A stretch of 64,000 nt of DNA from a virus (IMGVR_UViG_3300045594_000116:32001-96000); one strand, 5' to 3'. Positions 18,169 to 34,900 are shown, counted from the stretch's first letter. A program made the numbers and translations. The notes: generated by a model not told the origin, from the letters alone.

Positions 18169-18294
18169 ATAGATCGCCTCCTTTCACTGTTATAATATAT
18201 GACTATTTATCATATTATTGGCTTCATTGCTGTAGGAGGCCTAAAAGACACGGAAACCCCAGATGGCGCAATGCCATCCGGGATCATAGAAAAA

Positions 18295-18795
18295 TTACCG
18301 TGCAGGCTGGAGAATGCAACGAATACCCTGCTTCTGCAGAACATCGTATGCACGCTCGATCATAGCAACTGCTTCGCATTTCTTCGATTTAAGTTTCTTG
18401 TTATCAGTCTTAGATGCTTCTTTAGCATCCTCGATAGCCTCATCACAAGACTTCTCATCGATCAATACAGCAAATTTACCAGCTTCAAGTTTGAAGTTGT
18501 CGGTGCTATTTGCCTCAGCGATGTCAGTAATGGCTTCTTTGAAGTCATGAACTCCCATCTCCTGCATATAGTCACAGAGCTGGCCGAGTTCAACAAAGTA
18601 GCAATCAAGGCGCTTACAGTCGCGAACTATAACAGCCTCAGCCATATGCTTGAGCTCACCCTTCTTCAATGGTTCCATAGAAGACAAAATATTTGTCAAT
18701 TTCATCTTCCCAATCTCTGCATTGAGATTTTCATAGCAATGATTGTTATCATTCTTTGCCATCTCAAGCAGACACTCTATACCTGTTCTAATCAT
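18295..18795 (-). CDS. Late hypothetical protein, possibly a head component
   Basis: GGAGG RBS, late promoter at 18840-18851, terminator hairpin near 18255-18283. Confidence 0.7.
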   Translation of the reverse strand: MIRTGIECLLEMAKNDNNHCYENLNAEIGKMKLTNILSSMEPLKKGELKHMAEAVIVRDCKRLDCYFVELGQLCDYMQEMGVHDFKEAITDIAEANSTDNFKLEAGKFAVLIDEKSCDEAIEDAKEASKTDNKKLKSKKCEAVAMIERAYDVLQKQGIRCILQPAR

Positions 18796-18902
18796 GGTAT
18801 ATACCTCCTGTTTTTTTAATCAACCCCATATGGGTAGGTTTACCTTTATGTTCACCAAGGGGTTTAAAAGAAAAAAAGAACCCGAGGGTTCTTTTACTCT
18901 AA

Positions 18903-19025
18903 TTACCACAGAATGAAAACGTGGCGCTCAAACCAATTTCTGAGCTTCTCCACCATCCAGGGTCTTTCTTTCGGTAGCGTGATACGTCCAGTTGGTTTCT
19001 TGAATCTTTCTACTACAATTCTCAT
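18903..19025 (-). CDS. Small early protein, 40 aa (MRIVVERFKK...HVFILW), not in the ORF track
   Basis: Has its own TATATATTATA promoter (19067-19077), AGGAGG RBS and downstream terminator aagaaccc/gggttctt. Confidence 0.7.
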   Translation of the reverse strand: MRIVVERFKKPTGRITLPKERPWMVEKLRNWFERHVFILW

Positions 19026-19092
19026 TCTTATTCCTCCTAGAAAACTTATTTATTCACTATCATAGCTATAATATATAATTGAGCTAAGCTAG

Positions 19093-19824
19093 TTATACAT
19101 TTTCTGGTTTGGCATTATTTAGACGATCAAGATTGCTCTTAATGTATGCAAGAACATCATCCATATTGCTAGGCATTCCTGCAAGAGATGCATCGATCGT
19201 AAGAATATGAGGAGCAATAAGAGCTCTAACCGAATCAATATCGAATGTCTCTGAAAGCTTCTCGATCTTTTCTATAGTACAAAGAGTCTCAGGATCAATA
19301 AATGGTTTATACATTTCTAAGAACTTTTTGTACTGTCCAAATACTATTGTAGATGGAACGAACAGATACTGATTATGAACCAGATCATGTATCATCTCAC
19401 ATAATGGAACCAATCCAACCCATTTCTGATAATGAATATAAATAACTTCTTTAGCGACCATTTCGATAGAAAGGTCTTCTCTCATAGCAGCTCTCTTATT
19501 GTATACAGCTAATACAATATCATAGAGAGTGAATGGCTCATGATGTATCTCTATACGAATTTTGAATGATTCAGCATTCGTTACATTTGGAAGATATGCG
19601 CAGTGATCCATTCCTGCATTCTCCCTAAGGTAGTTGATACATCTTTGATACTCTATAGAACTACGTATTTCACGCTCTACATCTTTGATATACATCTTGA
19701 AATCTTTTGGATCATTTAGATCATAATCTTCCCTTGTATAATTAGGGATAGAATTGATGCTCATTTGGTTTTTAGCAGTTGTATCGTAATGACCTTTGTT
19801 AAGGTTGTTAGGATCTCTAGCCAT
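19093..19824 (-). CDS. HNH-like protein, paralog of 8613-9332
   Basis: IEIHH...LCEMIHDLVH; late promoter at 19838-19849. Confidence 0.6.
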   Translation of the reverse strand: MARDPNNLNKGHYDTTAKNQMSINSIPNYTREDYDLNDPKDFKMYIKDVEREIRSSIEYQRCINYLRENAGMDHCAYLPNVTNAESFKIRIEIHHEPFTLYDIVLAVYNKRAAMREDLSIEMVAKEVIYIHYQKWVGLVPLCEMIHDLVHNQYLFVPSTIVFGQYKKFLEMYKPFIDPETLCTIEKIEKLSETFDIDSVRALIAPHILTIDASLAGMPSNMDDVLAYIKSNLDRLNNAKPENV

Positions 19825-19907
19825 TATAATCACCTCTTTAATCGTATGTCAAAAGGCACAATAAGACTCTAGGATCATAGACCCTAGAGTTTATTGAATA
19901 TGATTAT

Positions 19908-20450
19908 TTACTTTTCAGCCGTGATCTTTTCGACCTTCGGTACGCTCTTCTCGTAGACCTTGGCTTCAGTGATGACGTCAGCCTTTTTCGGAGCTACCTC
20001 CTTGGTTTCGTTGATGACCTCGAGCTTCTCTGGAGCCGTCTTTTTTGGAGCTGCTTCCTTAGCGCGATATTTCATAATAGTCCAGCCGTTCTCTTCAAGT
20101 TTCTTGAAATTAGCCAGGTGATTACGACCGTCGCGAAGAGAGATGCGGAACGAATAATGAACCTTACCCTTCTTATTGCGATTGATCTTCCATCCAAAAG
20201 AGCAGAAGCCGCTCGTCTTGAATCCTACTTCATAAGCCGAAATGCTGAAAGCAGGAACAGTAGGAAATTCCGGATTCTGAATAGACGGATAGTGGCGTTT
20301 AACCTCATCCATCATACTGTAAACAACGTCTTTTTCTACGTTAGATTCCCCGAGGATACCGCTTACGAAAGGAATCATCTTACGAAGCTCAATGATACCG
20401 TCTTCAAAAGTATCGAATTCTTTAATATAGTTACTCATGTTCATGGCCAT
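19908..20450 (-). CDS. Hypothetical protein with a K/E/A/P-rich tail
   Basis: 180-aa ORF with RBS, followed by a terminator hairpin near 19864-19892. Confidence 0.75.
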   Translation of the reverse strand: MAMNMSNYIKEFDTFEDGIIELRKMIPFVSGILGESNVEKDVVYSMMDEVKRHYPSIQNPEFPTVPAFSISAYEVGFKTSGFCSFGWKINRNKKGKVHYSFRISLRDGRNHLANFKKLEENGWTIMKYRAKEAAPKKTAPEKLEVINETKEVAPKKADVITEAKVYEKSVPKVEKITAEK

Positions 20451-20511
20451 TAGTAATCTCTCCCTTATGTTTTAGATAGTCACATTTTAGTATTCTGATG
20501 TAATATCAGAA

Positions 20512-21873
20512 TTATTTATTTACATATTCCACTTCTTCTTTGACAGATATCACTTCATCGATTTCACTGTCAAGCTTCTGAAGATCTTTCTCCATATCTT
20601 TATATCTAGGACGTTCTTCATCCTCGATAAGAGACTTCATGGAATTCATAGAGAATAAGGCTGTAGTTTCAGTATGCTGGGCAAGAAGCTGCTCAAGTTC
20701 TCTAGTCATGACCTGTACTTCTGGCTGTGCTGCTTTATTATCCCGCTCTTTGATAAAGTGGATAAGATCTGCAAAGGTGAATGTCATAAGAACCTTAGTA
20801 GCTACGTTAAACGGAAGATATGCACGAGCATCCTGCTTAAGCATCCCCTGTTGAACAAGCTGTCCGTATACCATTGCTAATTCGTTACCAAGCTCTTCTC
20901 CAGTCTTAGAAACTTCTTTGTCGAAAAGCGTGATAAGATAATGCTTCTTAAGATCATAATCTCCAAATGGTAATGGAGAAATGAACTGAGATTTAGAATA
21001 ATCTACATATCTCTGACTCTCCTGAGAGATACCAGCAAAATGCCTGGTAATCTGTTGGGAAGTGGATCTCGAGAAGTCATGGAAGAAAATCGTACATGCT
21101 GTTACACGAAGGACATCGGTCATATCAAATCCGAATCCTTTTACAAAATCGAATATGGTATATGGATTATCTGAATGGATAATATCCACATACTTACCTT
21201 TTGTCTGAGGCTGCATATACACTCCTGTATCTACAGCTACCTCTTCGTCATAAGCATCCCCGTTTTCATCGAACTTATGCTCATACTGCCCTTTAATTCC
21301 AGATAATGGAGCAAATCCAAACTTATCTGCTACCATGATTCCATCATCAATAAAGTCCTCAAAGAATTCTCTTTCAGCAGCACCGTACAGAGAATTTATG
21401 ATCTTGATACAGAATGGGTTAGACAGATCTCTCACATGGCGAATGAAATACTTATAAGCTCTAATAGAGCCACCGATCAAAAGATAGTTTCTTCCGTCAT
21501 GAATACGATCTGAAATGTTCAGGAATTTGAATGCATCTGAGCACTGAGCAAAATCAGAAAGATATGTATTATCATATGAAATCATCATGACAATATTACT
21601 CTGAGCAATAGTAGATTCATGCCCTCTGCCTACTACCCTCTTGATATGCTCAAGGCGTTTTTCATAATTTTCATCAGCATGTTTACCAATACATACTCGT
21701 GCGGCTTCAGCACAAGTATATGAAGCATTAGAGAAAGAAATGAGCTGTGAGGCCATAAAACGGTTAGTGCCTACCTCTTTATCCTCCTCCTCGAGTAAAC
21801 GCGCTTCTTTGTCAAACTTGCCTTCTGGTTGGTGCCTGAATAAGCCTTTCAGCCACGTAAAAATCTTAACCAT
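20512..21873 (-). CDS. thyX: FAD-dependent thymidylate synthase ThyX (long, two-domain form)
   Basis: GHES motif, RHFAGISQESQRY signature and DARAYLP. Confidence 0.88.
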   Translation of the reverse strand: MVKIFTWLKGLFRHQPEGKFDKEARLLEEEDKEVGTNRFMASQLISFSNASYTCAEAARVCIGKHADENYEKRLEHIKRVVGRGHESTIAQSNIVMMISYDNTYLSDFAQCSDAFKFLNISDRIHDGRNYLLIGGSIRAYKYFIRHVRDLSNPFCIKIINSLYGAAEREFFEDFIDDGIMVADKFGFAPLSGIKGQYEHKFDENGDAYDEEVAVDTGVYMQPQTKGKYVDIIHSDNPYTIFDFVKGFGFDMTDVLRVTACTIFFHDFSRSTSQQITRHFAGISQESQRYVDYSKSQFISPLPFGDYDLKKHYLITLFDKEVSKTGEELGNELAMVYGQLVQQGMLKQDARAYLPFNVATKVLMTFTFADLIHFIKERDNKAAQPEVQVMTRELEQLLAQHTETTALFSMNSMKSLIEDEERPRYKDMEKDLQKLDSEIDEVISVKEEVEYVNK

Positions 21874-21891
21874 CTATCCTATCGTCTCCTT

Positions 21892-22446
21892 TTAGTTTCG
21901 TAGTTTACCAAGCTTAAGGCTAACTACCTTGCTTGGAAATAGGAATTCAACTTCTTGCGTAGTAATTTTAAAATTCCTTACAAGAAATTCATAATCCAAA
22001 TCCTTACACTGAAGATTAGAATCTTTATTGAGCATGAAGCTTAAATGCTTCAAGGCTCTTTTACCTTTCTTAGAAAGCTTTACACACCCATCTGCAAGAT
22101 CAAAATACTTAGGGTGGAGATCCATAGACTGAACCCAATTGGCAAAGAAACTTTTCTGCAATTTAGAAACAGTAATACCTTTATTATTATCATTCCAAAA
22201 TTTCAAATGCATGTAGGAGATGCTCAATCTTCTGTAGTACCAAAAGAGTTCTTCTCCTCTTTTAGTAAGCTCTCCATGGCTTATCAACCCAGTTCTCCAT
22301 AAACGTTCAAACTTCTGATCTACCATCTTTACTGGAAAGATAGTATGAAGAATTGTCATAGATTCTTGAGCGCCTCTGTGCGATATAAGGTTCAGCAAAC
22401 CAACCCAGTTGATGTCTTTTGCCTGTAATCGAAAGTTACTGCTCAT
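21892..22446 (-). CDS. Hypothetical basic protein, possibly winged-helix-like
   Basis: Coupled ORF with LTKRGEE and LSKKGKR segments. Confidence 0.65.
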   Translation of the reverse strand: MSSNFRLQAKDINWVGLLNLISHRGAQESMTILHTIFPVKMVDQKFERLWRTGLISHGELTKRGEELFWYYRRLSISYMHLKFWNDNNKGITVSKLQKSFFANWVQSMDLHPKYFDLADGCVKLSKKGKRALKHLSFMLNKDSNLQCKDLDYEFLVRNFKITTQEVEFLFPSKVVSLKLGKLRN

Positions 22447-22952
22447 CTTCTGTATTCTCCTCCACCTACATCTGCCCAGTGATGATCATGCGGATTCTCT
22501 CTGTAATAGTAGTTAGCACGTTCTCTTTTAGTTTCTGAATTCAGAAACTTAGTATTGCCATAACTATCGATATCAACTACTGTCAATCCAGCAGCGATAC
22601 AACGATCAACAAGTTCACCAGCAATATCAGAAACATTGTTATCTCTGAATACAATAACCTTATATGGTTCTGTATGGATAAGATCTCCGATAGCTCTAGA
22701 GATGAATCTCTTATCAGTATCAGGTTTGAATCTGATATTACGGAGATTAGCTAATGGAACTTTATATTCCTTAGCATAATTGAATACATGCCAGTCTAAT
22801 CTCTCTACAATTCCAAAGATAAACTGTCTGTTAGAATTATCTCTAACAGTCTCGAATATCTTATCCATTGCAAGCTGTAATCCTGACGACGTATTGAATG
22901 AAGGATCTGAAATGATAATGATAGGATGGACAAATCTTGTCTTATCTTCCAT
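22443..22952 (-). CDS. Hypothetical protein, possibly SLOG/DUF2493-like fold
   Basis: Alpha/beta pattern IIISD...VIVF...AAGLTV, within a nucleotide-metabolism operon. Confidence 0.5.
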   Translation of the reverse strand: MEDKTRFVHPIIIISDPSFNTSSGLQLAMDKIFETVRDNSNRQFIFGIVERLDWHVFNYAKEYKVPLANLRNIRFKPDTDKRFISRAIGDLIHTEPYKVIVFRDNNVSDIAGELVDRCIAAGLTVVDIDSYGNTKFLNSETKRERANYYYRENPHDHHWADVGGGEYRR

Positions 22953-22954
22953 TG

Positions 22955-23707
22955 TTATTTCCTCCCTTTTCTAAACTCTTCATAAGCATCAATAACTTCT
23001 TTAGCTACATCTGCTCTTTCTTTTACATCATACCCATTCTCGACTGCAGCTGTATTAAATGATACAGTGATATTCACTTGCTTTACTTCTTTAGCCGGAT
23101 AGCAGAGGTGTGCGAAATCAAAGGCGTCAAATTCCTCTTTTACGTACATCAGATACTTTAGATCAGATTCGTGAATATCATTCTGAGAATGCTTAGCAGT
23201 AACTTTGTCTTTAATGGCATTACTAGAGCTAATCATCTTGTATACCAGATCAGGCGTTGGAAGTTCAAATGCATAAGCAAGTTTGCTTATTTCATTAGGC
23301 AATTCAGAATGAATGATACCATTCGCATAGAACGGAGAATCTTCATCGTCAGATGCATTTTCTTTCATCCATCCAAGACGATAATAGAGATTGGAAAACC
23401 AATATCTATCCATGATGAGAATTCCACCATTGTCTAAATGCCTCTGCCCGATCTTTTTCATATAGTCGAACATATCAACCATATAAAGACTGCTGATAGC
23501 ATTACTGGTAAGATCTTCCTGAACACCATATCTACCAGAAAGATACTCAGTTACAAAATATGATGCCTTACTCTGATAACGTGGGAATGATACAAGTTTT
23601 ACATCATGCCCATATTTCTGCTCGATGTGATTTAATAAAACTTTACTGTTCGTTTCTTTAAAGGAGCAATCAAGCCCCTCAAATACGATAAGTTGTCCTT
23701 TACGCAT
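22955..23707 (-). CDS. tmk: Thymidylate / deoxynucleoside monophosphate kinase
   Basis: LIVFEGLDCSFKET (variant P-loop), SFPRY, DRY..S..Y, PDL and IHE. The GGAGG RBS supports the start at 23707. Confidence 0.8.
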   Translation of the reverse strand: MRKGQLIVFEGLDCSFKETNSKVLLNHIEQKYGHDVKLVSFPRYQSKASYFVTEYLSGRYGVQEDLTSNAISSLYMVDMFDYMKKIGQRHLDNGGILIMDRYWFSNLYYRLGWMKENASDDEDSPFYANGIIHSELPNEISKLAYAFELPTPDLVYKMISSSNAIKDKVTAKHSQNDIHESDLKYLMYVKEEFDAFDFAHLCYPAKEVKQVNITVSFNTAAVENGYDVKERADVAKEVIDAYEEFRKGRK

Positions 23708-23767
23708 ATTCTTATTACCTCCTATTGGTTTACTTAATTGTAACGCGTATAATAATTTTGCACAGAT

Positions 23768-23795
23768 AACCCCTATCCAATTAAGGATAGGGGTT
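23768..23795. terminator. Terminator-like hairpin ending the putative ncRNA
   Basis: aacccctatcc-aattaa-ggataggggtt. Confidence 0.65.
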
Positions 23796-23799
23796 AAAC

Positions 23800-24364
23800 T
23801 GTGTAAGATAGCATAATTCATTTAGGGTGGGATGTTTGCACCGTCTCGAACTCAATCGATTATAAGCGGTACTTCTAAAAAGTTATCTACGTTTGCTAAC
23901 GCTAGTCATCATGAATTTCAAATATTTGATCTGGTATGTGCATTATCGGGATCAATCGAAATCCGGAAAGTCAGGTGATTCACAAGAGATAACTAGAGCT
24001 ATGATAATAGCTCTATAAAAAATAAATCAGCGTGCGCTGATTGAAAGACATAAAGAAGCCGGCCGGCGCCAATATGGCCGGCCTCTTATATAATCCGAGT
24101 TTTAGATTCGAAGATCTCGGAACTTCATTTAGCCGCACACAGCAGCCTTTTGTCGGCAAGTACGCCGACTGATCGGCTACGATCACTCGTAGCCCGTACA
24201 TAATACCACCCGAATCATCACGAGTGGGATTTTGAATCATACAGCGCCGATTTCCCGCTATCAATGCCTAGTACCTTAGGGTGGCTTCATGGACGGATCA
24301 ATTTCCAAAGCACACAAACCGTATGATAACTATTGGCTATGCGGATGCGGATCTTTGTATGATT
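23800..24364 (-). ncRNA. Candidate large structured noncoding RNA (about 350-600 nt), family unassigned
   Basis: GC-enriched gap with no credible ORF and many hairpins. A GUGA (GNRA) loop and G-U pairs favour the minus strand. Late promoter ACA-TAGATG-TAA at 24363-24374. Confidence 0.65.
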
Positions 24365-24402
24365 ACATCTATGTTTGATACAAATTATTTTTTACAAAAG
24401 TT

Positions 24403-24431
24403 ATCCCTCTACCAGCCGAAGGTAGAGGGAT
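24403..24431. terminator. Palindrome-family terminator
   Basis: atccctctacc-agccgaa-ggtagagggat. Confidence 0.7.
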
Positions 24432-24546
24432 GTTGTGAAGGAATACTTGCAAAGACTGAACTTTCATATCATATTTCCGAAACAGTAATAGACAAGAATT
24501 GAGCCGATTCTTTTCTATTACATATATGTCAGTATCATATATATTT

Positions 24547-25356
24547 TTACAAATCCGACATCGTGGTTGTTTCGCATTCTCCGATAAAGATATCATTAGT
24601 TCCATCATCGTTAGGCTGACGTTCTATGGTTGATTTATCAGAGAACTGAATCTCATATCTATAATCGTCAATATCATACATGAATATCTCAGTTGCTGGA
24701 GCTACGAATGGTTTAGTACCATCGTCTTTCGGCAGAATAACTTTGCTCAATAACTCCAAGAAGTCTTCTATATCTTTTGGAGTATTCAGCATATTGTCAC
24801 GGAACCGTACAGCGATAATATCTTCTCTGTTTAAATCACCATGCTTCATGATAGCAGATACTGCATCAAGATCTGTACGAATTACAACAGAGTCATTCGT
24901 TTCTACTCGACTCTCTTTAATGAAGTCTTCCATATCTTTAGATATAGAACCATCGATATTCTCGAGATAGCATCCCTGATGCCATTGAATGAATGCAGAT
25001 GCAATCTTCATTCTAGGCCCAATTCCATATTTCTTGATATCTGTAGTGGTTACTTCTTTAACAGCTTTCTTGTAGATCAATCCTGTACAAGAATCATCCG
25101 GTTCTCTGCTTAATACTTCTCCATTTGGTATGATGGTATAGATATTACAAGCCGGTATCGAATTGTCGTTGTCCATATCTTCCAGTATATGAGATGTAAT
25201 AAGAACGTATGTCGGAATGATCTGATCTTCCAATGAATCTTTATGGCATTCTATTGCATACAACAGCTCTGCAAGATTCTTAGAGATAGTCCTTCCCGAT
25301 AAAGGGCACTTGTCGTTAGTCTGCCCAGATGTATATACGTATATATTGATTACCAT
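24547..25356 (-). CDS. Hypothetical protein
   Basis: 269-aa ORF with a GGGGG RBS-like element. Confidence 0.75.
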   Translation of the reverse strand: MVINIYVYTSGQTNDKCPLSGRTISKNLAELLYAIECHKDSLEDQIIPTYVLITSHILEDMDNDNSIPACNIYTIIPNGEVLSREPDDSCTGLIYKKAVKEVTTTDIKKYGIGPRMKIASAFIQWHQGCYLENIDGSISKDMEDFIKESRVETNDSVVIRTDLDAVSAIMKHGDLNREDIIAVRFRDNMLNTPKDIEDFLELLSKVILPKDDGTKPFVAPATEIFMYDIDDYRYEIQFSDKSTIERQPNDDGTNDIFIGECETTTMSDL

Positions 25357-25381
25357 TTTCTATTCCCCCGTTTAATTATAT

Positions 25382-25927
25382 TTATCCCCAAATCTTCTTG
25401 GTTACTTTGTCTACTAGTCTATACGTATCTGGATGAAAGATATGCGTATAGTATTGCTGGTTCTTTTCGAACCATGCTCTAGGAGATCCAAATGCAGCCC
25501 AGTCGCACAGCATCTCTGCGATATCAAGTTTAGGCATTGCTAAGTAAGTAATCTTAGCGTATGCTTCTGTCTTACCATCTACTTCATGAGTGCTATCGTC
25601 TATCAACGTCCAGTATTCTGGATGGTGGCTATTGGTATTCTGGTGATGTAACCATGCTCTTGCATAAAGAGCATCAGCCTCGTCTTTATCCTCACCTGGT
25701 TTAGGATCGAAATGCTTACGGTATCCAATGAACTCCTCTTCGCTGTACTTGCTCTTGTCATGAGCAATTACTCTGTGAAACAGATCATCGTTAAGATCTG
25801 GTGCACCGAGTTCTTTAAGAATCTGAGTACCGTACTTCTTGAATGCTTGAGATACCTTCTGGATATGTGAGTCTGTATAATCAAGCATCTTTTTATCTTT
25901 GGATTCGAATTTAATCTTTTCAGCCAT
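25382..25927 (-). CDS. DUF5662-like HD-type metal-binding protein
   Basis: H...HDKSK...AWLHH..N.HHPEYW...EMLCDW; late promoter at 25959-25970. Confidence 0.75.
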   Translation of the reverse strand: MAEKIKFESKDKKMLDYTDSHIQKVSQAFKKYGTQILKELGAPDLNDDLFHRVIAHDKSKYSEEEFIGYRKHFDPKPGEDKDEADALYARAWLHHQNTNSHHPEYWTLIDDSTHEVDGKTEAYAKITYLAMPKLDIAEMLCDWAAFGSPRAWFEKNQQYYTHIFHPDTYRLVDKVTKKIWG

Positions 25928-26231
25928 TGTGCTTATCCTCCTATAGAATTACTTTAGTTTACTTAGGTGTCATCTGTTAAGTAACAAATAGATTTCTATA
26001 TAGGATATGAAGAGAGCTAGCGTACCTAGTGAGAATCCTATAGGAGATATGGTATTTATGCGTGACACGTACCTCGATCGTCAATGTATTATGAATAGAC
26101 TTACTTTGACTACATATACAGGTATAAGTAAGATATGTATCTAGTTATTTGAAATATATTAGATAGGTAGATTATATATCAAATTAACAAAAAATATAAA
26201 ATTATTATGTAAAAAAATATATTATGATAAC

Positions 26232-26278
26232 TATATAATAGGGGGCTGCGAATAAGTAATAAAGCAGCCCCCTAATAT
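26232..26278. other. Isolated GC-rich inverted repeat in a very AT-rich noncoding region
   Basis: tagggggctgc-N14-gcagcccccta. Confidence 0.7.
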
Positions 26279-26460
26279 AAAGATATGATAAAATACTTAT
26301 TTTAGATAACAATATTTTTATATATCTTTTATTAACCTGAAATACAATTTAGTTATCCAACATACTTCCAATATCTAAATAGGTATGTTAGTTTTACTTG
26401 CATACGCAGTTAAGTAAATCCATTGATAAAACATTAACGAAATAGCAATTCATCATCTTA

Positions 26461-27320
26461 AAATACATGATAACTCCTAAGTGAGTTATCATGATTACTT
26501 GTGTCAAATATCCTAAATCTCTTATATCAAACTTTAAGTCTATAAAGAAAGTAGACTAGATACAAGAGAAAATAGTAATTCTAAATGTAAAAAATTAAAA
26601 CTTACACGACAGATAGATAGGGGGAGCATATACAACCAGCAGCAAACAACCCGCACTCTGTTTCTATTTCCAGGATAAAGAAGCGTAAATACATGATAAC
26701 TCAGTAGGAGTTATCATATCTCTTGTGTCAAATATCCTAAATCTCTTATATCAAACTTTAAGTCTATAAGAGTAAGTAATCTGGAATAGTAAGAGAAAAT
26801 ATAAAAAATTAAAAGTTACAGTACAAATAGATATTGGGGAGATGGATAGACACCAGGTAGCAACAACAGCCGCAGCCAATTATCCAACCTAGGAGAGGGT
26901 ATCGAGATATAGGAGAAGAAATGATAAGATATGATGATAACTCATAGTGAGTTATCATCTATCATATTTCTCTTATATCAAACTTTAAGTCTATAAAGAA
27001 AGTAGACTAGATACAAGAGAGAAATACCAATCCTAAATGTAAAAAATTAAAACTTACACGACAGATAGATAGGGGGAAGCATATAGAGCCAGCAGCAAAC
27101 AACCCGCACTCCGTTTTCAATCCAGGATAAAGAAGAACCAAATACACGATAACTCCTAAGTGAGTTATCGTATCTCTTTTGTCCTAAATCTCTTATATCA
27201 AACTTTAAGTCTATAAGAAGTAAGATATCCTGATATAAGAAAAAATGTAAAAAATTAAAACTTACACGACAGATAGATATGGGGGAGGCATATACAACCA
27301 GCAGCAAACAACCCGTGTCC
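26461..27320. repeat. Four imperfect tandem repeats of about 210-245 bp; candidate replication origin or structured RNA array
   Basis: Units start near 26461, 26687, 26931 and 27140. Each has GATAACTC-N5/6-GAGTTATC, TCTCTTATATCAAACTTTAAGTCTATAA, AAAAAATTAAAA(C/G)TTACA, a G-run and CCAG(C/GT)AGCAA. Confidence 0.92.
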
Positions 27321-27355
27321 AAATATTTTTTTTTGTAAAGAAGGATGATATCCAG

Positions 27356-27700
27356 ATGTCAGATAATAAGATATATGAACCAAATAAAGAATATCCATTA
27401 GATTTAACTGTATCTTGGGATGAATTAAGAGAATTATATTTTAAGGATGAATACCAGATAGATACAATTAGAGATGCTATGCTTCAGCATCTCTATAAAC
27501 CTATCATGTATCGTAATAGAAAGATCGGAGAGATCAAAAGCGTATCAGAGGAAGATGGACAATTCGCATTGAAGTCTATTATAGATATCCCATCATATGT
27601 ATTCATGAATATGAGTGGCAAGATCAACTTCAGACTTGTTAGGGATATCGATACAGATAAATTATCTATTACAGCTTATAGCAAAAAGGAGACATGGTAA
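27356..27700 (+). CDS. Hypothetical protein, tandem paralog of the next gene
   Basis: EYPLDL...INFRLVRD compared with NYPIEI...IDYKLVRE. Confidence 0.75.
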   Translation: MSDNKIYEPNKEYPLDLTVSWDELRELYFKDEYQIDTIRDAMLQHLYKPIMYRNRKIGEIKSVSEEDGQFALKSIIDIPSYVFMNMSGKINFRLVRDIDTDKLSITAYSKKETW

Positions 27701-28050
27701 TGGAAGAAGAAAGAATCCCATCAGGCGTAGAGAATTATCCTATAGAGATTAAGTTGTATTACAAAAAGCTATATGGAATGGAAGACTTGAATCTAAAGGA
27801 CAAAGTAGACGTAATAGATAGCGTATACAATATGGACAAGATTATCAGATTTGAAGATGGTACTCAATTCGCAAAAGTAGAGAAGACATTCAAAGATGAT
27901 AACTATATCCTGGTGAAGACTAGATTCTATATACCATCCGGTTTCTATGGAGCAATAGACTACAAACTAGTTAGAGAGGAAGATGGACGATTAGCTATAC
28001 GTCTATCCAAAACCAAAGATCATAAAGAAGGGTTTCTATTTGCCTATTAA
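27694..28050 (+). CDS. Hypothetical protein, tandem paralog of the previous gene
   Basis: AAGGAG RBS; coupled to the previous gene. Confidence 0.75.
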   Translation: MVMEEERIPSGVENYPIEIKLYYKKLYGMEDLNLKDKVDVIDSVYNMDKIIRFEDGTQFAKVEKTFKDDNYILVKTRFYIPSGFYGAIDYKLVREEDGRLAIRLSKTKDHKEGFLFAY

Positions 28051-28111
28051 AAGCTAATGGCATTAGAACCTATTACTAATTTCTAACTGTATATAAAAAG
28101 GAGATAAGATA

Positions 28112-28687
28112 ATGATTACACTTACAAAAGAAAATGAACAGAATGACGTACTGAAACCTATGGAGAAATTCCTGAATATCATTCTGGAAGATCCAGCGAT
28201 GGAAACGAGCAAGTTCGCAAAGCGCGAATTCAATATGACTCTGTATATCAAGTCGATTGCTCCAGGTAAACCTGGTCAGCCATTGATTATTCTGAAGCCG
28301 ACGATTGTTACTGGTGAGAAAGAACAGATTGGAGTTCCGTTCAATCCTAACTTCATTCACAGTGTAATGCAGATCATCAGCATCTTCTATGCTGATGCAG
28401 AGAATTCTAAGACCATCAAGAAAGTATATCTTGATGATACGTACAGATTGCTTAAGAAGCATGTAAGTGATCTGACTAATATCATTGCTCAGAACGTACC
28501 AGCTGATGAGATCACCAAGGCTCTTGGCGTGACTTACGTGATGAACACTCTGTCAACTGGTAAAGTTGTAGATGAGGTTGTAAACTTCATTCTCAATACC
28601 AAAGAAGAAGAGCCAAAAGAAAAGTCCAAGATTATCCTTCCGGGTCCTAAAGTAGGACTGAGCTTCAGCGACGTTCATAAAGGATAA
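28112..28687 (+). CDS. Hypothetical protein
   Basis: 191-aa ORF with AAGGAG RBS. Confidence 0.78.
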   Translation: MITLTKENEQNDVLKPMEKFLNIILEDPAMETSKFAKREFNMTLYIKSIAPGKPGQPLIILKPTIVTGEKEQIGVPFNPNFIHSVMQIISIFYADAENSKTIKKVYLDDTYRLLKKHVSDLTNIIAQNVPADEITKALGVTYVMNTLSTGKVVDEVVNFILNTKEEEPKEKSKIILPGPKVGLSFSDVHKG

Positions 28688-28768
28688 CATTTGTTAAAGT
28701 CATAAATTTCAAGTATATATAATATCAGTGAAAGAGAATAAAGTATATTTGAAAGGATATGATTTTAA

Positions 28769-28963
28769 ATGTTAAAAGGTAAAAAGTTCAGAAGCGGATC
28801 TATCGGAGAGAAATTGATGATAGGTATCTATGTTCCTTGGTATTTTATCCATGACGTAGCCTTCGAAGAAGTTCTTGAAGGATCGTGGGCAAACGTAGCA
28901 AAAATGGTAGGGGCTATGGTTGGCTTCTATCTGATCATGGTTGGCCTTGCAGTGATAGCTTAA
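28769..28963 (+). CDS. Small early membrane protein
   Basis: Early promoter at 28714-28724, hydrophobic C-terminus, terminator at 28968-28996. Confidence 0.7.
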   Translation: MLKGKKFRSGSIGEKLMIGIYVPWYFIHDVAFEEVLEGSWANVAKMVGAMVGFYLIMVGLAVIA

Positions 28964-29029
28964 AGAATATCCCACTACCTTGCTGGTAGTGGGATAAATT
29001 TTGTAAAATTGAAAAGGAGATTGATTAAG

Positions 29030-29473
29030 ATGAAAAAAGACATTGAAAATGGATTTAAAATTGCTATACCTACAGATGATAAAGAGGAGGAAATCTTAGT
29101 AGATTACAAATATACTTCTATTGACGATAGTGGCAATGTCATTGCCAACCCGGTAATGCTGCTTGCGATCCTGCAACGCATGGATGAAAAAAAGATAATT
29201 GAGGTAGAGTTGAATTTATATTACAAAGAGCTTCAAGTCGGGTATGCCGATGACTATGAAAGTATGACCCATGCTTGGATTCCAAGCAATAGAGAGATTA
29301 TACAATCATACTACGCCTTGAAAGGTTTGAAAAGAGCTTTAAAAGAAGTTGTAATCCCTAAAAATATAAACCTCACTGTACGAACTAACGAAGATGGTAT
29401 GATATTCAATACCCAAGGAAAGAGTGAGTGCGATACATTGAACATATGCAGATTGATTGGAGATTTTTGCTGA
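29030..29473 (+). CDS. Hypothetical protein
   Basis: AAGGAG RBS before the ATG at 29030; terminator near 29478-29510. Confidence 0.75.
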   Translation: MKKDIENGFKIAIPTDDKEEEILVDYKYTSIDDSGNVIANPVMLLAILQRMDEKKIIEVELNLYYKELQVGYADDYESMTHAWIPSNREIIQSYYALKGLKRALKEVVIPKNINLTVRTNEDGMIFNTQGKSECDTLNICRLIGDFC

Positions 29474-29566
29474 CATATACCCGCTACAATAGTAGCGGGT
29501 TTATTTTTTGACGGTACATTTTTTCAGTGATATATTATAATAATGAAAGAAAAGGAGGTAAGTTTA

Positions 29567-30040
29567 ATGAGTAAGTTTATAAATGCTATTGGTATGGATA
29601 TTGATACCGCAACTGCAAGTAAGATTAGTAGATCATTCTTTGGTTGTTTCAAGATGTTTGTAGTGAAAGAATCGAAGGTTGAATCTACTAATATCATGGT
29701 GTATGAAATCTCGTCGTATAATCATGATATCATCTTTAAGAAGAATAAAATCTCCGTACAGGTAGATTATACTTCTAAAGAATCATTCTGCAGATCATTA
29801 GAGAAAATTGCTGAGTTCTTATTCTCTATCTCAGAATGGAGATCTGAAATAGAAATGTTCGATGAATTATCTACTATATTGAAATGGCTCACTAGTATCT
29901 TTGAAATCAATTCCAAGAGACAACCTGTATTTCTGAAGGAAGCAAAATTCAGATTGGAAATGAAATTTATGGATCTTATGAAACCTTCAATTTCTAAAGA
30001 AATGATCAAATTATCGTGCAAAAAGCGTAAGGCAGTGTAA
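29567..30040 (+). CDS. Early hypothetical protein
   Basis: Early promoter at 29530-29539 and AAGGAGG RBS before the ATG at 29567. Confidence 0.75.
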   Translation: MSKFINAIGMDIDTATASKISRSFFGCFKMFVVKESKVESTNIMVYEISSYNHDIIFKKNKISVQVDYTSKESFCRSLEKIAEFLFSISEWRSEIEMFDELSTILKWLTSIFEINSKRQPVFLKEAKFRLEMKFMDLMKPSISKEMIKLSCKKRKAV

Positions 30041-30157
30041 GTATACCCATAACGCTTCTAAACGCACAAACTAATAAAAAGACCTATCTTAATTATATCC
30101 TAATCAATACGATTAGGATAGGTCTTTTGTCTAACTAAACAAAAAGGAGATTAAAAA

Positions 30158-30739
30158 ATGTTTGAAAAAATTATTAGAGCTATGCTTAGAGATCCATTAG
30201 GGAGATTGATACTTAGCAGTAAGTCTGTACAGAAAGCTATAATTTGGGGTGTAAAATTCTATACAGATTTCATTGTAGAATTCCGTCTTCAAAGATCTAA
30301 ATGGTTAGGATCTGCAAGAGCATATGTTGCTGTAGATGTTTCATATGACAACTGCGACATAGCAGGTAAAAAAGTTCTCATTAGCAATACTGAGTTGCGT
30401 AGTAACAGATACTTGACTTGGGCAGATGCTAATGAGATAAATGATTCTAATAAGTTTCGCAACGTAAAATTTAGCCCGTTGCTTAATGAAGAGAAAGATA
30501 TAGCTACAACAGTAGTATTCTCAAAGGGTTATCCAAATGAATCCAAACTTATCAATGATAACCTAATATTAACCCCTATAGATCCAGAGAAGAAATTCAA
30601 TATCGATGTATTCGATGGCAATGACCCAGACTATGGGGATAGAATGGTTGATGCCATACTAGACTTGAAAGAACGTCTTGATGGACATTTCGGAGATGAT
30701 CTCCGTAAAGCTTTGGCAGTGTTAAAGCAGGTATCCTAA
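30158..30739 (+). CDS. Hypothetical protein
   Basis: 193-aa ORF with RBS. Confidence 0.75.
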   Translation: MFEKIIRAMLRDPLGRLILSSKSVQKAIIWGVKFYTDFIVEFRLQRSKWLGSARAYVAVDVSYDNCDIAGKKVLISNTELRSNRYLTWADANEINDSNKFRNVKFSPLLNEEKDIATTVVFSKGYPNESKLINDNLILTPIDPEKKFNIDVFDGNDPDYGDRMVDAILDLKERLDGHFGDDLRKALAVLKQVS

Positions 30740-30755
30740 GAAAGGGAGTTAGAAT

Positions 30756-31070
30756 ATGATAGATCTTAATAAACCTACGATTTACAAAAACATCCATGAA
30801 GGAATGATAGAGTTCCTTACAAAACTGCAAGGAGTAAATGACAAATTGATCTTTGTCGATCAGAGTCTGTATCCAGATCTGAACATTCTTGTTCAGTTCG
30901 AAGAGCCTCCTAAGAAGGTTTGTGATACGATAGTAATCAAGAACGCTGTTATCGAAATGGATAATGGTGTAGAGAACCTTGTAGACGTTATAAAGAAAAT
31001 GTTTACGGAGAAGTTTAAGGTAGAGAATCTTGATGAGAAACTCAAGTTCAATTACTTCTTTGAATCATAA
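30756..31070 (+). CDS. Hypothetical protein
   Basis: 104-aa ORF with RBS, followed by a palindrome terminator at 31082-31108. Confidence 0.75.
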   Translation: MIDLNKPTIYKNIHEGMIEFLTKLQGVNDKLIFVDQSLYPDLNILVQFEEPPKKVCDTIVIKNAVIEMDNGVENLVDVIKKMFTEKFKVENLDEKLKFNYFFES

Positions 31071-31122
31071 GACACAAAATATCCCTCTGCCCATTACGAG
31101 CAGAGGGGTATTTTTTTTTTGA

Positions 31123-31518
31123 TTACTGAGCGATTTCGCCCTCAGCAGCCTGAGAAGCTTCGGCTACCGGAGTAGCCGTCGTCTCTTCCGTTGCAGCAGC
31201 TTCCGCAACAGCCGGAGCAGCAGCCTCTACGGCAGCGGCCTCAGCCGGGGATGCTTCGAGCATCTTACCAAGAACCTTATCCAGAGCGTACATAGCGATC
31301 TGAACAAGACCCGGAAGGAAATACTTATCGCGGAAAGAGCACCAGCCCTTTTCATCAACAGCCTGTTTCTTTACTTCATCAACGAACGTGTCGACAACAG
31401 CTTTAAGATCCGTATCAACAAGATCCTTCAGGAACTTGACGACTTCGTTCTTAGCTTTCTCATCGAGAGCTGAAGTGATAGCATCAACAGCAGCCTTTTT
31501 GATTTCTTCAAAAGTCAT
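31123..31518 (-). CDS. Small late helical protein with an Ala/Glu-rich tail
   Basis: AAGGAGG RBS and GWCSFRDKYFLP motif, which recalls small proteins of Negativicutes phages (from memory, unverified). Confidence 0.7.
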   Translation of the reverse strand: MTFEEIKKAAVDAITSALDEKAKNEVVKFLKDLVDTDLKAVVDTFVDEVKKQAVDEKGWCSFRDKYFLPGLVQIAMYALDKVLGKMLEASPAEAAAVEAAAPAVAEAAATEETTATPVAEASQAAEGEIAQ

Positions 31519-31558
31519 GTTAAACACCTCCTTCAATAATATAATGTTAAGCCTCTAG

Positions 31559-31916
31559 ATTTCAGTTATATATAATATAAGTGAATAAAGAATACGTAGC
31601 ACAGAAAAACCCCTCTACCATAGCAGTGGTAGAGGGATATCTGCTGTCACGATTCTAGAAAGAGAGGTGACAATTGTGAAAGTTAGTGAAGTTAAGAACT
31701 TCGACGACGCCATCGTACTCGCCCTTAAAGAGTCTGGCATTCGTACTGATACTACATTCAACTCAGATGCTGAATGTATATCAAGCATGAATAAGGTCGT
31801 TGGCCGTGCCCATAAAATATGGGTAATGGCAGCTCCACTTATACATTGATTAGCATACGCTAATACAATGGAAAAAGAAAGTATCCGAAGTAACGCTTTC
31901 TTTTTTATCATTTTGT
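31559..31916 (+). repeat. Mini-gene cassette copy B
   Basis: 31559-31608 is identical (50 bp) to 39483-39532. AAAAGAAAGTATCCGAAGTAACGCTTTCTTTTTTA (31873-31907) is shared with copies A and C. Antisense late promoter at 31905-31916. Confidence 0.85.
31676..31849 (+). CDS. Small cassette-encoded protein B (57 aa)
   Basis: GAGGTG RBS and GTG start. TTFNSDAE and W...PLIH are shared with protein C. Confidence 0.7.
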   Translation: MKVSEVKNFDDAIVLALKESGIRTDTTFNSDAECISSMNKVVGRAHKIWVMAAPLIH

Positions 31917-31934
31917 TCATCTGTAATTATTTAC

Positions 31935-34900
31935 TTACATCTGATCAAGATTCTTCCACTTAATCCCAAGCATTTCTTTACACTTACGATCAAGTTCAAC
32001 CAGTGCCTTATTAATTGCTCCAGTGATGATAATAGAACTTACCATACGAGCATTAACTGCTGATGTAGTAAGAAGAGCATCTACTGGTTCATCTGGTCTG
32101 AACTCTGTTCTAGGCTCATCACCCTTAGGCATTATATCTTTGACGACACCCTTGATAGAGTTATTATAGATAAGCTTATCGCCTACACCCATTTTATCTT
32201 CGCACTTAAGATAGAACTCGATAAGAACGCTATCTTGTGCTTTCTTGAGTTTGCCGTTTGCTTCAAGTTTATAGTCAGGCTCTAAGAGATATTTAGCACC
32301 CTCAATTTTATTTTTTGCAAACATGGCTTTATCTTTCTTGATCTGTGCTTCATAAGCTTTACAAATCTTTCTAAGAGAAGGAGAAAGATCCTCTAACTCA
32401 CAAGTTCTGTAAATCTTGATATCCTGAACCCAACCAGAAAGTTTACTTCTAAGATGTATACGTCCGAGATCAGATACAGCTTCTACGTCATCATCGGTGA
32501 TAGAGCGAAGCAATGCGTTAGCATCTTCTTCTTCAAATGCATTCTGGAATACCATAAGAGGATCTCCCTCATTGATAGCAGAACCTTTCTGTACCAGATT
32601 ATATACATTAGCATCCTTAGACAGAATCTTTTCCTTCTTGACTACATACGTACTGCTCATAGCATCTGACAAGTATTCATCAATGATAGATGAATCCTCG
32701 TATCCTTCATCTGTCGGAAGGATAGCAAGCTTACACATAGCTCCAATGGCATATGCCATATTCTTCGTATTCTTTTCAAGACCTACTGGTTTCTTATAAC
32801 AAGTAGAATCATAAGCAAGAATATCATTGTTATGAAGAATCTGCCCCTTCTTAACTTTTGGATCGAGCTTAAGAGTTACATAGAATCCACCATCTGAATT
32901 CTTCATTGTCTGCTCAGAAAGATTGATGAACTTACGTTCTTTGGTATCGCTATCTTCATAGATAAGATATCTATCAGTAACGTCAAGAACCTTACCTTTC
33001 TTTCCTTTGAAAGTAGCACAGAACAAATCTGATGTCATGTATGGAATAGCTTCATCCATGCCGGTAGTTATAAGATTAGGCATAGCCTTCTTGATACGCA
33101 TTGGATGTTTCGTGGACTGAATAAATCCCATTGCTACACGAATAGGATCATCATGTACAGTACAACCAGGATTCAAAGCCTCATGGATGCTAAGTGCATT
33201 AAGTGTATTTACATCCTTAGGAGTTTTGATCATTCCACGTACACCCTCTACAGATGCATTTATCGTAGCCTGACGAGTAATACCAACATTAGCGGCAAAA
33301 CCAGTAGACGATGCAACCACACCGAACATACTAGGATTGTATATACGCTTATCAAGACTGTAAGATCTATCAGAGTTCATACCAGATAGGCCTTTGAATG
33401 AAAGCGTATTAGCTTCCTCTGCTTCAAGCTGAGGATTCAATACAGATAGATCAGAGCATGTGCTATCCATAAGTACAGCATCAATTACTGCTGACTGTTT
33501 GACAGACATAGTCGCATCCTTCTTATTTCTCTTAAGCATAATGCGATATTCTCCATATGCTTTAGAAATAACTTTATCGAAGTACGCAGCAATGATTTCA
33601 TTGGTGCGGATTCTATTGCCAGAGATATCTGTATGAAGATTATACTTCGTATCTCCCAATAATGCACTAGCATAACCAAGAGCCGTTACATAATCATCTG
33701 GAAGATTATACGTATTACAAATCTCTTTAGTGATAGGATCAAACATGCAGTCATAGAAGTTATCCAAACCATCTGCTTTAATTCTTCCTCCAAAGTTATC
33801 TAAGAAGTCCAACCACATATTTTTGTTGTTGATATCTTTGATAGAGTAATCTTCTGTGTTACAGGTATACAAGCCGCTCATAAGAAGTGAGTTAGCTGTA
33901 GTATCCGGATATACTATATAGCCATCAGAGAACTTGATATAAGATTCATTAGCCTTAGGTCTTGTTTCACGGAATTCCGACTCTACTCCGGCTTTAGCCA
34001 TAGCCTGCTGTAATCCTTCACTGTATGCCATGACAACAATAACAGGAATTCCAGTAGCAAGAATAGAAGCTTCAGAATATGAAAGTCGTTTATCCGCCTT
34101 TATACCATCAAAGCAATCTAATCCCATATGAGATATGATTATAGACATGATGTCTGCACCGAAGTTTCCTGCATTACTACAAACGACCTTGCCCTTATCA
34201 TTTACATAGTAAGGGGTCATAGTAGGATCATCCTTGTCTTTAGGATTCATATAAGGCAGGCTAGTAAGTTCATCCATATTGAAACAGAGATATGATCCAT
34301 CTTTGAATATAACTTTGTTATAGTTAGAAGCTATATCTCTCATCTCGATAGGAATATCGTATTTCGAACATACAATGCTATTATCGCCTTCGATGATCTT
34401 CATTTTGTTTCCATCATACTTCTTGAGATACTTATTAATCACAGACATGGATTTCGTGGTTTTAGTACCATTTGAAGGATTGACACGACGAACAAAGATC
34501 TTATTATATGAACTTGATACTATCTGACAAGTATCTTCATCTGTTTTGATGATAGGAAGCAGTAATAACTGCCCATTCAAAACTTTTAGGTTACCACGCA
34601 ATTTCATAAAGCGATCATTTATGAATTTAGGAATGTCGAGTTTCAACGTGAATCTCTTACCATTGATATCTTCACACTTGATAGTCCATGTCTCAATATA
34701 ATCTTCGGTAGTAGATGTATCTTCCTTAATTATATCTAAGATTACGATAGGATTGGTCTTATTGTTAAGAGCCGCGAGACTATTGACAATATCTGATTCT
34801 AAGTTATACGACTTTGAGAATGTAGAGAACTGTATGTCTTTCCATTCTTCATTTATAGATTCAATAGGAATATTGTCTTTTGGCAAAGCCTGATTTGTTC

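Follow-up and report, generated by a model that had tools for sequence, protein, structure and literature searches.

The longest gene-free gap of a jumbo phage genome contains an array of four diverged repeats, most likely small non-coding transcription units placed in series ahead of an accessory operon. With a probability of about 50%, we propose that the repeats are composite terminator-promoter cassettes, transcribed rightward by the phage's own late RNA polymerase, a non-virion enzyme of the AR9 type. Motif activity, the ends of the transcripts and any function of the short RNAs are inferred from the sequence; they may be sponges, regulators or by-products. An earlier note on this DNA had favored a replication origin or a segregation or packaging site acting through hairpins, with an array of structured RNAs as the alternative. 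The alternative is nearer to the evidence than the origin or hairpin-acting site, since the hairpins carry terminator tails.

The phage genome and the gene-free gap

The source record is a virus of 229,508 bp from IMG/VR, a linear contig estimated to be 91% complete. The window, which is the whole stretch of 64,000 nucleotides analyzed here, corresponds to positions 32001-96000 of this record, and coordinates are those of the window unless the genome is named. Multisubunit RNA polymerase genes are present in the phage genome, and the polymerase beta subunit is about 30% identical to its nearest isolates, the Staphylococcus, Listeria and Yersinia relatives of AR9/PBS1. Based on these two observations, the phage is a distant AR9-like jumbo phage. 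The gap and two of its features outside the repeats are as follows.

25928..27355, no strand: entire gap without genes, flanked by the divergent genes 25382-25927 (-) and 27356-27700 (+)
25960..25971, - strand: late-type promoter motif GACACCTAAGTA(A), 44 nt ahead of the start of the leftward DUF5662 gene; PWM score 11.7 bits
26211..26302, no strand: large imperfect palindrome with 39-nt arms, 82% complementary

The gap is the longest non-coding stretch genome-wide and falls inside the lowest-GC 2-kb window of the genome, in agreement with the AT-rich DNA and diverging flanking genes described in the earlier note. The core of the palindrome is a G+C hairpin, GGGGGCTGC-N14-GCAGCCCCC, at 26241-26272. 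A coding-potential check of the gap found no ORF conserved across the array units in any frame, a tRNA search of the gap returned nothing, and no Rfam family matched the gap at gathering thresholds, the sole match at E up to 1 being a chance miRNA. Sigma-70-like sites are fewer than expected from shuffles (15 versus 21.6), and host-type promoters were dropped on this count. DnaA boxes were also dropped, with only look-alikes carrying two mismatches (TTATCCAAC).

Repeat units and their uneven conservation

The array was detected by repeat search and BLAST; Tandem Repeats Finder made no call. The four tandem repeats of about 220 bp reported before are confirmed as four diverged units of 208-244 bp, pairwise 74-92% alike and spaced at 208-241 bp. 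U1 and U3 are the closest pair (91.7% alike), and the array may have grown by tandem duplication, as suggested by their 92% likeness. U2 and U4 are only 74.4% alike. The ABAB pattern that had been described is found in the central segment, but it extends neither to whole units nor to their 3' part, in which U1, U3 and U4 cluster and U2 stands apart.

Three dyad-symmetric elements and one copy of the A-tract AAAAAATTAAAASTTACA are present in each unit. Each unit also possesses one copy of a 28-mer, TCTCTTATATCAAACTTTAAGTCTATAA, which is identical in all four units, as the claim of an invariant sequence had it, and is unique to the array in the whole genome. Its 28 consecutive invariant columns were reproduced in 2 of 20,000 column shuffles of the unit alignment. 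Even the most diverged unit, U2, retains the hairpin arms, the tail, the 28-mer box, the A-tract and the NACA-N6-TA core. The repeats are genuine, and the constraint on them is uneven.

Hairpins of the array resemble the terminators of the phage

The phage's own promoter and terminator signals were derived before the repeats were interpreted. Terminators of this phage are perfect hairpins, usually G+C-rich (typically 50% or more), followed by a tail with the consensus tAT.TTTTGTgt, which was obtained from two hairpin sets, intergenic (n=58) and downstream of genes (n=73). TGTGT is enriched 23-fold in the 16 nt behind the 58 intergenic hairpins, and TGT occurs at offset 3-13 behind 25 of the 73 hairpins downstream of genes, compared with a background of 11.7%. 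A relative of the phage, the contig G001, shares this terminator tail, e.g. GGTTAGAGAGATATATTGTGTTT.

The hairpin pattern GATAACTC-N3-8-GAGTTATC was found at 26469-90, 26695-715, 26936-56 and 27148-69, and neither elsewhere in the window (shuffles expect 0) nor in the rest of the 229.5-kb genome. The hairpins with their tails are listed below.

26466..26505, + strand: terminator-like hairpin 1, 11-bp stem, loop CTAAGT, tail ATTACTTGTGTC
26693..26729, + strand: terminator-like hairpin 2, 10-bp stem, loop AGTAG, tail ATCTCTTGTGTC
26933..26971, + strand: terminator-like hairpin 3, 12-bp stem, 3-nt loop TAG, tail TATCATATTTCT, T-rich and without the TGTG element
27146..27183, + strand: terminator-like hairpin 4, 10-bp stem including a compensatory C-G pair, loop CTAAGT, tail ATCTCTTTTGTC

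The typical tail (AT.TCTTGTGTC), with a TGTG/TTGTC element at the modal offset, is seen behind three of the four hairpins (ATTACTTGTGTC, ATCTCTTGTGTC, ATCTCTTTTGTC). A generic terminator scan flagged all four on the + strand, with 11 sites against 1.5 expected. The four array hairpins therefore look like the ordinary transcription stop signals of the phage, as judged from these signals. However, some properties count against this reading. The array stems contain 30-40% G+C and thus differ from the G+C-rich stems of most phage terminators, a few A+T-rich terminator stems being found elsewhere in the genome, e.g. at 30096 of the window, and the array tails are less T-rich than usual for the phage, the one in unit 3 also being devoid of TGTG. 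With such stems the hairpins would be weak terminators or attenuators. Hairpin promoters of the N4 type were rejected, since the stems of 10-12 bp and loops of 3-6 nt do not fit the required 5-7-bp stem and 3-nt loop; they are also excluded by the multisubunit polymerases, in place of a single-subunit virion polymerase, and by a clear linear early motif.

One hairpin per unit with differing loops had been described in the earlier note, and this holds, except that the loop of unit 3 has 3 nt and the range of 5-6 nt does not apply throughout. The compensatory flank change in unit 4 is present as a double change from T-A to C-G. It is the sole double change in the consensus fold of either strand, so that "covarying" applies to one pair among four paralogous copies. 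The covariation is thin, since a symmetric change in the hairpin is equally expected from a palindromic protein site or from gene conversion.

Promoter-like modules

Two classes of promoter were recognized in the phage. The early class, TATATTATA-N4-TG, has 33 copies, mostly directly upstream of ribosome-binding sites. The late class is [AG]ACA-N6-TAA, with T also seen at the first position. They match the two motif classes of AR9, whose early motif is AAATATATATTAT-N6-G and whose late motif is AACA-N6-TA/G (Lavysh et al. 2017, PMC5312081). No early motif of at least 8 bits was found within 57.0-60.5 kb of the genome, and a near-match at 26218 is without the A and the TG. The motif ahead of the DUF5662 gene, at 11.7 bits, scores no differently from the training promoters.

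Each hairpin is followed, some 100 nt downstream, by a module TGTAAAAAATTAAAACTTACAC-GACAGATAGATA-GGGGGAGCATATACAACCAGCAGCAAACAA, with TACAAATAGATA in U2. In general form, this 3' module is TGTAAAAAA-N13-NACA-N6-TA-GGGGG followed by a conserved 34-nt leader, and NACA-N6-TA followed by a G run is kept in every unit. A further module, which we call unit 0, precedes the array.

26206..26240, + strand: unit 0 promoter-like module, (A)TGTAAAAAAA-N12-AACTATATAATA with GGGGG directly after, in the AT-rich tract; 6.7 bits
26586..26619, + strand: unit 1 promoter-like module, TGTAAAAAATTAAAACTTACAC and GACAGATAGATA, predicted start A26619; 7.7 bits
26800..26833, + strand: unit 2 promoter-like module, the most diverged, TATAAAAAATTAAAAGTTACAG and TACAAATAGATA, predicted start A26833
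27038..27071, + strand: unit 3 promoter-like module, predicted start A27071; 7.7 bits
27246..27279, + strand: unit 4 promoter-like module, predicted start A27279, 77 nt before the ATG at 27356; 5.9 bits

Unit 0, which spans 26208-26245 when its G run is included, differs from the unit core GACAGATAGATA at 7 of 12 positions, all of them non-consensus or permitted, while all four strictly conserved positions (AC, TA) are kept and two semi-conserved positions have permitted bases. The unit modules score 5.9-7.7 bits on the late profile, compared with 11-17 bits for most training or gene-proximal late promoters, and about 283 sites in the genome reach at least 6 bits. Moreover, the base after the start point in the unit modules is G or T rather than A, which counts against the late-promoter reading. 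Taken alone, a unit module would be a weak late-type site.

ACA-N6-TA is retained in all six module copies, two of which are gene-proximal. The unit 4 module is the sole promoter candidate for the rightward operon. A distant 60-nt copy at 119696-119755 of the genome, 60 kb away, is 95% identical to the unit 1 module; it starts eight bases after a typical terminator and lies 46 nt before the start of a 136-aa gene, a position in the sequence which is that of a promoter and leader. In addition, TGTAAAAA-N12/13 is found ahead of strong late motifs at 24396 (-) and 24551 (-) of the window. Note that TTTTGTAAAA is also a common terminator tail in the phage, and the upstream half of the module may thus descend from a terminator tail.

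Proposed transcription units and operon

In the proposed cassettes, each unit would start with an A+T-rich intrinsic terminator, composed of the GATAACTC hairpin and a T-rich/TGTG tail, and would close with the promoter module TGTAAAAAA-N13-NACA-N6-TA, from which a transcript would begin AGGGGGAGCAUAUACAACCAGCAGCAAACAA. Five rightward late-type promoters, including unit 0, would alternate with four weak terminators and give rise to four short non-coding RNAs, with lengths of about 265, 110, 140 and 115 nt. The hairpins are read as transcription stops, not as origin hairpins, on account of their phage-type terminator tails and the late-promoter-like modules that precede them.

26240..26505, + strand: putative transcript 0, about 265 nt, A+T-rich, from the unit 0 start to the first array terminator; predicted ends
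26619..26729, + strand: putative transcript 1, about 110 nt, with C/A-rich 34-nt leader, variable part and unit 2 terminator; predicted ends
26833..26971, + strand: putative transcript 2, about 140 nt, z = -2.1; predicted ends
27071..27183, + strand: putative transcript 3, about 115 nt, sibling of transcript 1; predicted ends
27356..28687, + strand: three small ORFan genes of 114, 118 and 191 aa, downstream of the array

Transcript 0 would open from A26240 with the G+C hairpin 26241-26272 and stop at the first array hairpin, which explains why the array starts with a terminator. Its stretch of 266 nt is predicted to be well folded (MFE -58.4 kcal/mol, z = -5.4, a value reached by 0 of 200 shuffles). 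The other predicted RNAs are, outside their terminators, not unusually folded (z = -0.4 to -2.1); their 5' part is C/A-rich and unstructured, and they show little structure besides the terminator. Transcript 2 contains a mini-ORF of 8 codons with a good ribosome-binding site, AGGAGA-N5-ATG at 26920, and its stop codon lies in the loop of hairpin 3. A target search over all translation-start regions of the phage found no small-RNA target above shuffled controls, and the top match was the array's own antisense.

The fifth promoter would supply the 77-nt leader of the three-gene ORFan operon. Because the stems are weak, the terminators are probably attenuators, and part of the upstream transcription may add to the expression of the operon. 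A typical G+C-rich terminator at 28968-28996 lies between the ORFan operon and the next gene. Searches of Pfam, PHROG and Atlas gave no lead on the function of the ORFan genes.

The 28-mer box and the second stem

The four copies of the 28-mer box lie between the hairpins and the promoter-like modules, at about -100 to -74 relative to each predicted start.

26518..26545, no strand: 28-mer box copy 1, its left part forming the left arm of stem 2, with the right arm at 26559-26569
26742..26769, no strand: 28-mer box copy 2, identical
26969..26996, no strand: 28-mer box copy 3, identical
27189..27216, no strand: 28-mer box copy 4, identical

The box holds a 9-nt palindrome, ACTTTAAGT, between TTATA and TATAA. 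It is not accounted for by the cassettes, and our guess is that a regulator of the array promoters binds to it. Conservation is highest in the box, which is not part of the predicted short RNAs, and this suggests a function at the DNA level as much as RNA genes.

In another explanation, a DNA-binding protein recognizes the units of the array, which would be a sponge for a regulator, a centromere-like partition site or a site for packaging recognition, with transcription secondary. The contacts would be the invariant 28-mer, the palindrome with 10-bp arms and TGTAA-N11-TTACA. Conservation that is strongest in the box, outside the predicted RNAs, the three dyad-symmetric elements per unit, and the symmetric T-A to C-G change in unit 4, which suits a dimer site as well as a hairpin, all speak for such sites. 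However, the arms of the palindrome are 3, 5 or 6 nt apart, and a dimer on duplex DNA would not easily tolerate such variable spacing. The box is found nowhere else in the genome, and no DNA-binding, ParB-like or small-terminase gene was recognized nearby. AR9-type phages are not known to have a site of this kind. We consider protein sites as the primary function quite unlikely, but they are compatible with the cassettes if the box is an upstream regulatory site.

The second stem claimed for the units exists, as TCTCTTATATC paired with GATAYAAGAGA; it is partial in unit 2, and its two mismatches become G.U on the minus strand, as had been pointed out. A structured RNA from the minus strand as the functional product would agree with this, with the better consensus fold of that strand (-29.8 versus -18.6 kcal/mol), and with a minus-strand terminator scan that three of the four array hairpins passed. 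The G.U evidence is weak, since two transitions fall on the same strand in about 1 of 2 cases. Furthermore, no early or late motif of at least 5 bits points leftward into the array, and the TGTG tails are found only on the + side. We consider a minus-strand product very improbable.

Relatives and conservation of the locus

The relative G001 is a 128.8-kb contig, 52% complete according to CheckV, with 56 proteins in common with the phage at 23-67% identity. In G001, the nucleotide-metabolism genes neighboring the locus and the polymerase gene adjoin each other, and this syntenic place has no DUF5662 gene, no array and no ORFan operon. Conservation in related phages, to which the earlier note had looked, therefore did not hold in the one relative compared, and the array together with the ORFan block is accessory in the lineage.

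BLAST of the gap against three large contigs including G001 detected only noise, and against 50,697 phage records it gave no match. In IMG/VR, an exact scan for a 26-mer had 0 matches, a scan for the hairpin pattern had 98, all single and due to chance, and a promoter/G-run scan had 19 chance matches. A metagenome scan with a 20-mer of the box found five unrelated contexts, and searches with flanking proteins found distant, non-syntenic loci only. The DUF5662 protein has relatives of 99% and 67% in public data. No analogue of the array was found in AR9. Non-coding local repeats of AR9 were rejected as analogues, because they belong to group I introns that interrupt its terminase and RNA polymerase genes.

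The array could also be a neutral or near-neutral tandem expansion of the operon's promoter region, with functionless copy number and short transcripts. An accessory block missing from G001, the recent duplication of U1 and U3, and the failure to find an RNA target or a known RNA family would be expected from such an expansion. However, the divergence is strongly uneven, as seen from the rarity of the 28-column invariant run among shuffles, and even U2, the most diverged unit, retains the elements named above. We regard neutral expansion as improbable.

Replication origin as an alternative

The gap may alternatively be a replication origin, in which the A+T-rich tract with its large palindrome melts. 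The repeats would then be initiator-binding sites, with the 28-mer box and the palindromes, or would make short primer or activating transcripts, and the gap would receive negative supercoils from divergent transcription, comparable to the promoter-dependent origins used by T7 and T4. A candidate unwinding region is present, as the gap is the largest and most A+T-rich in the genome, and the invariant box is confined to the array.

Genome-wide GC skew, the check proposed in the earlier note, gave a mixed result. The detrended cumulative skew has its minimum at 58.0 kb of the genome, at the locus, and its maximum at 170 kb, 112 kb apart or 49% of the 229.5-kb record; this circular detrending is approximate, since the record is a linear contig estimated to be 91% complete. 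Forks departing from 56-58 kb would move in the same direction as transcription over 72% of the coding bases. On the coding strand, "leading" genes have a GC3 skew of +0.107 and "lagging" genes one of -0.048 (p = 2e-5), and a GC3 regression that includes strand and replichore puts the switch within 52-68 kb. Four-fold degenerate sites, however, give a weak signal (best -log10 p about 2.6-2.8), which is flat over 44-108 kb in a gene-level rank test. The pooled optimum of these sites, at 88-98 kb, is marginally better and dominated by a giant gene of 14.6 kb (GC4 skew -0.38). The weak and flat signal at four-fold sites implies that the minimum of the cumulative skew is largely an effect of gene orientation. 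An origin near the array is compatible with the skew, which has no localizing power.

Other properties of the locus also argue against an origin. The spacing of the repeats is neither iteron-like nor helically phased, the array hairpins bear terminator tails, and no initiator-like gene was recognized beside the gap, the neighboring genes being without recognizable family. The locus is missing at the syntenic place in G001, and the skew minimum of AR9 lies between two back-to-back early promoters with no array there. We know of no defined or mapped origin in the AR9-type jumbo phage group. An origin at the gap is possible but unlikely. We likewise give a low probability to a more specific pair of roles, in which the array is either a dosage-amplified set of late non-coding RNAs that have a common 5' leader mimicking two mRNA leaders and serve as sponge or decoy for an RNA-binding factor, or a transcription-driven origin, in a jumbo phage with multisubunit RNA polymerases, with the 28-mer as initiator or regulator site.

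Implications

If the proposed cassettes are real, terminator-promoter cassettes arise also in jumbo phages with their own polymerases, beyond the T4-type phages that depend on the host polymerase. The locus would then be a natural test bed for little-studied polymerases, offering a graded series of five promoter variants together with four weak terminators in 1.2 kb, and the clade-specific terminator tail (tAT.TTTTGTGT) would be useful in annotating such genomes. The 28-mer and its coincidence with the main strand switch point to a possible link to replication control, which would matter more.

Comparison with known systems

The primary origin of T7 consists of tandem phage promoters beside an A+T-rich tract, and oriF and oriG of T4 are also promoter-dependent. 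The array is similar in that tandem promoter candidates for a phage polymerase adjoin the DNA richest in A+T, where the main strand switch occurs. However, its A+T-rich tract is upstream of most promoters, its transcripts would meet terminators after about 100 nt, and the skew evidence at the array is non-localizing.

Tandem sibling genes of small RNAs, each with its own promoter and terminator, are known as LhrC1-4 in Listeria and PrrF1/2 in Pseudomonas. The array shares with them head-to-tail short units of about 100-140 nt that have been duplicated and would consist of an unstructured 5' part and a terminator hairpin. In contrast to these siblings, its best-conserved element lies between the predicted RNAs and not within them, and the 5' part of its RNAs is common to two mRNA leaders.

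With AR9 the phage shares a two-class promoter code, in which the early motif is extended and A+T-rich and the late motif is short. The ACA-N6-TA of the AR9 late unit is kept, with the predicted start at the last A, and operon ends coincide with hairpin terminators in both. The array motif differs in that G or T is its first base and also takes the place of A after the start. Moreover, AR9 has no comparable array, and its closest RNA polymerase match to the phage is only about 30% identical.

As far as the sequence can tell, the array most closely resembles, among described systems, the promoter-early stem-loop (PeSL) regulatory cassettes of T4-type phages (Arbiol et al. 2010, PMC2839356; Comeau et al. 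2014, PMC4122927). Differences are evident in several respects. PeSLs contain a sigma-70-type early promoter for the host polymerase, which the array does not have, its motif being of the late type for the phage polymerase. The stems of PeSLs have G/C runs, whereas those of the array are A+T-rich. PeSLs flank single genes, whereas the four cassettes of the array are head to tail with no gene between them, and the invariant 28-mer in each of them has no PeSL counterpart. Nevertheless, both are small composite units of terminator stem-loop and promoter in intergenic DNA, a composite that the array displays at the level of its sequence, and the ORFan-rich surroundings of the array are probably a variable region like those of PeSLs. 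Both are present in several copies per genome that are similar over about 60-100 bp, and the stem-loops of both are thought to attenuate transcription from upstream cassettes. Finally, PeSL copies can serve as recombination linkers, and the array, with a 95%-identical module 60 kb off, may swap sequence with this distant promoter/leader copy in a PeSL-like manner.

A tract with a strong predicted fold to the left of the array

The A+T-rich tract left of the four-unit repeat array (window 26240-26505, plus strand) was predicted to fold far more strongly than its shuffled versions (z = -5.4), with the following hairpins.

Hairpins in the predicted fold of the A+T-rich tract
Within window 26240-26505, plus strand: 5' G+C hairpin
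Window about 26273-26333, plus strand: long A-U hairpin
Window about 26359-26390, plus strand: third hairpin

The tract 26240-26505(+) could represent an independent non-coding RNA, about 265 nt long and expressed from 'unit 0', a degenerate copy of the promoter-like module found in each array unit. At window 26216-26233, AAAAATATATTATGATAACT nearly matches the early promoter, except that the A and the N4-TG are missing and the score is below 8 bits; the array palindrome's left arm, ATGATAACT, also falls within it.

Terminator tails, a possible joint and a mini-ORF

Terminator hairpins throughout the genome of this phage, and in its relative G001 (a 128.8-kb contig), are followed by a common sequence-specific tail, tAT.TTTTGTGT, which often includes TTTTGTAAAA and is not a plain T run. 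Many of these terminators are bidirectional, with CACAGAAAA on the opposite side.

Example terminators with the specific tail
Window 1822
Window 9922
Window 28968
Window 31611
G001 64790-64826

In unit 4, GTGTCCAAATATTTTTTTTTGTAAAG is joined to the leader at window 27313-27340. It resembles a terminator tail whose hairpin is absent, and 27313-27340 may be a recombination joint at which the module has replaced a hairpin. The 8-codon mini-ORF ATGATAAGATATGATGATAACTCATAG, which has a good ribosome-binding site, was found at window 26906-26947 and terminates within the hairpin 3 loop. An ATG likewise opens hairpins 1 and 2, each with a stop codon in the same frame inside the loop or just beyond. 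This arrangement in hairpins 1-3 could be coincidence or could denote translation-sensitive attenuation.

A fifth copy of the module and a gene of deviant skew

A fifth promoter/leader module copy was found outside the window at genome 119662-119800 (L115:3663-3801), flanked by a CCCTCTACC terminator on one side and a 136-aa ORFan on the other. The ORFan may possess two late start points, since a separate AACA-N6-TG motif is located 47 nt upstream of its ATG.

The 4860-aa gene at window 39916-54498(+) displays a strongly negative GC skew (-0.38) at four-fold degenerate sites, unlike its neighbours, and by itself displaces origin estimates drawn from pooled skew by some 30 kb.

Comparison with related phages

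Window 17482-36566 was compared with 64552-69507 of G001 (IMGVR_UViG_3300028048_000077). There, the thymidylate-synthase/kinase block adjoins the polymerase beta gene, and both are inverted with respect to the genes upstream. About 8 kb of this phage is missing from that place in G001, comprising the non-coding RNA gap, the DUF5662 gene, the array, the ORFan operon and the mini-gene cassettes. The largest 'non-coding' local repeats of the jumbo phage AR9 (NC_031039; 95408-96788 and 150095-152821) consist of group I introns, in families of similar members, that lie inside the genes for terminase (five exons) and virion polymerase beta (six exons).
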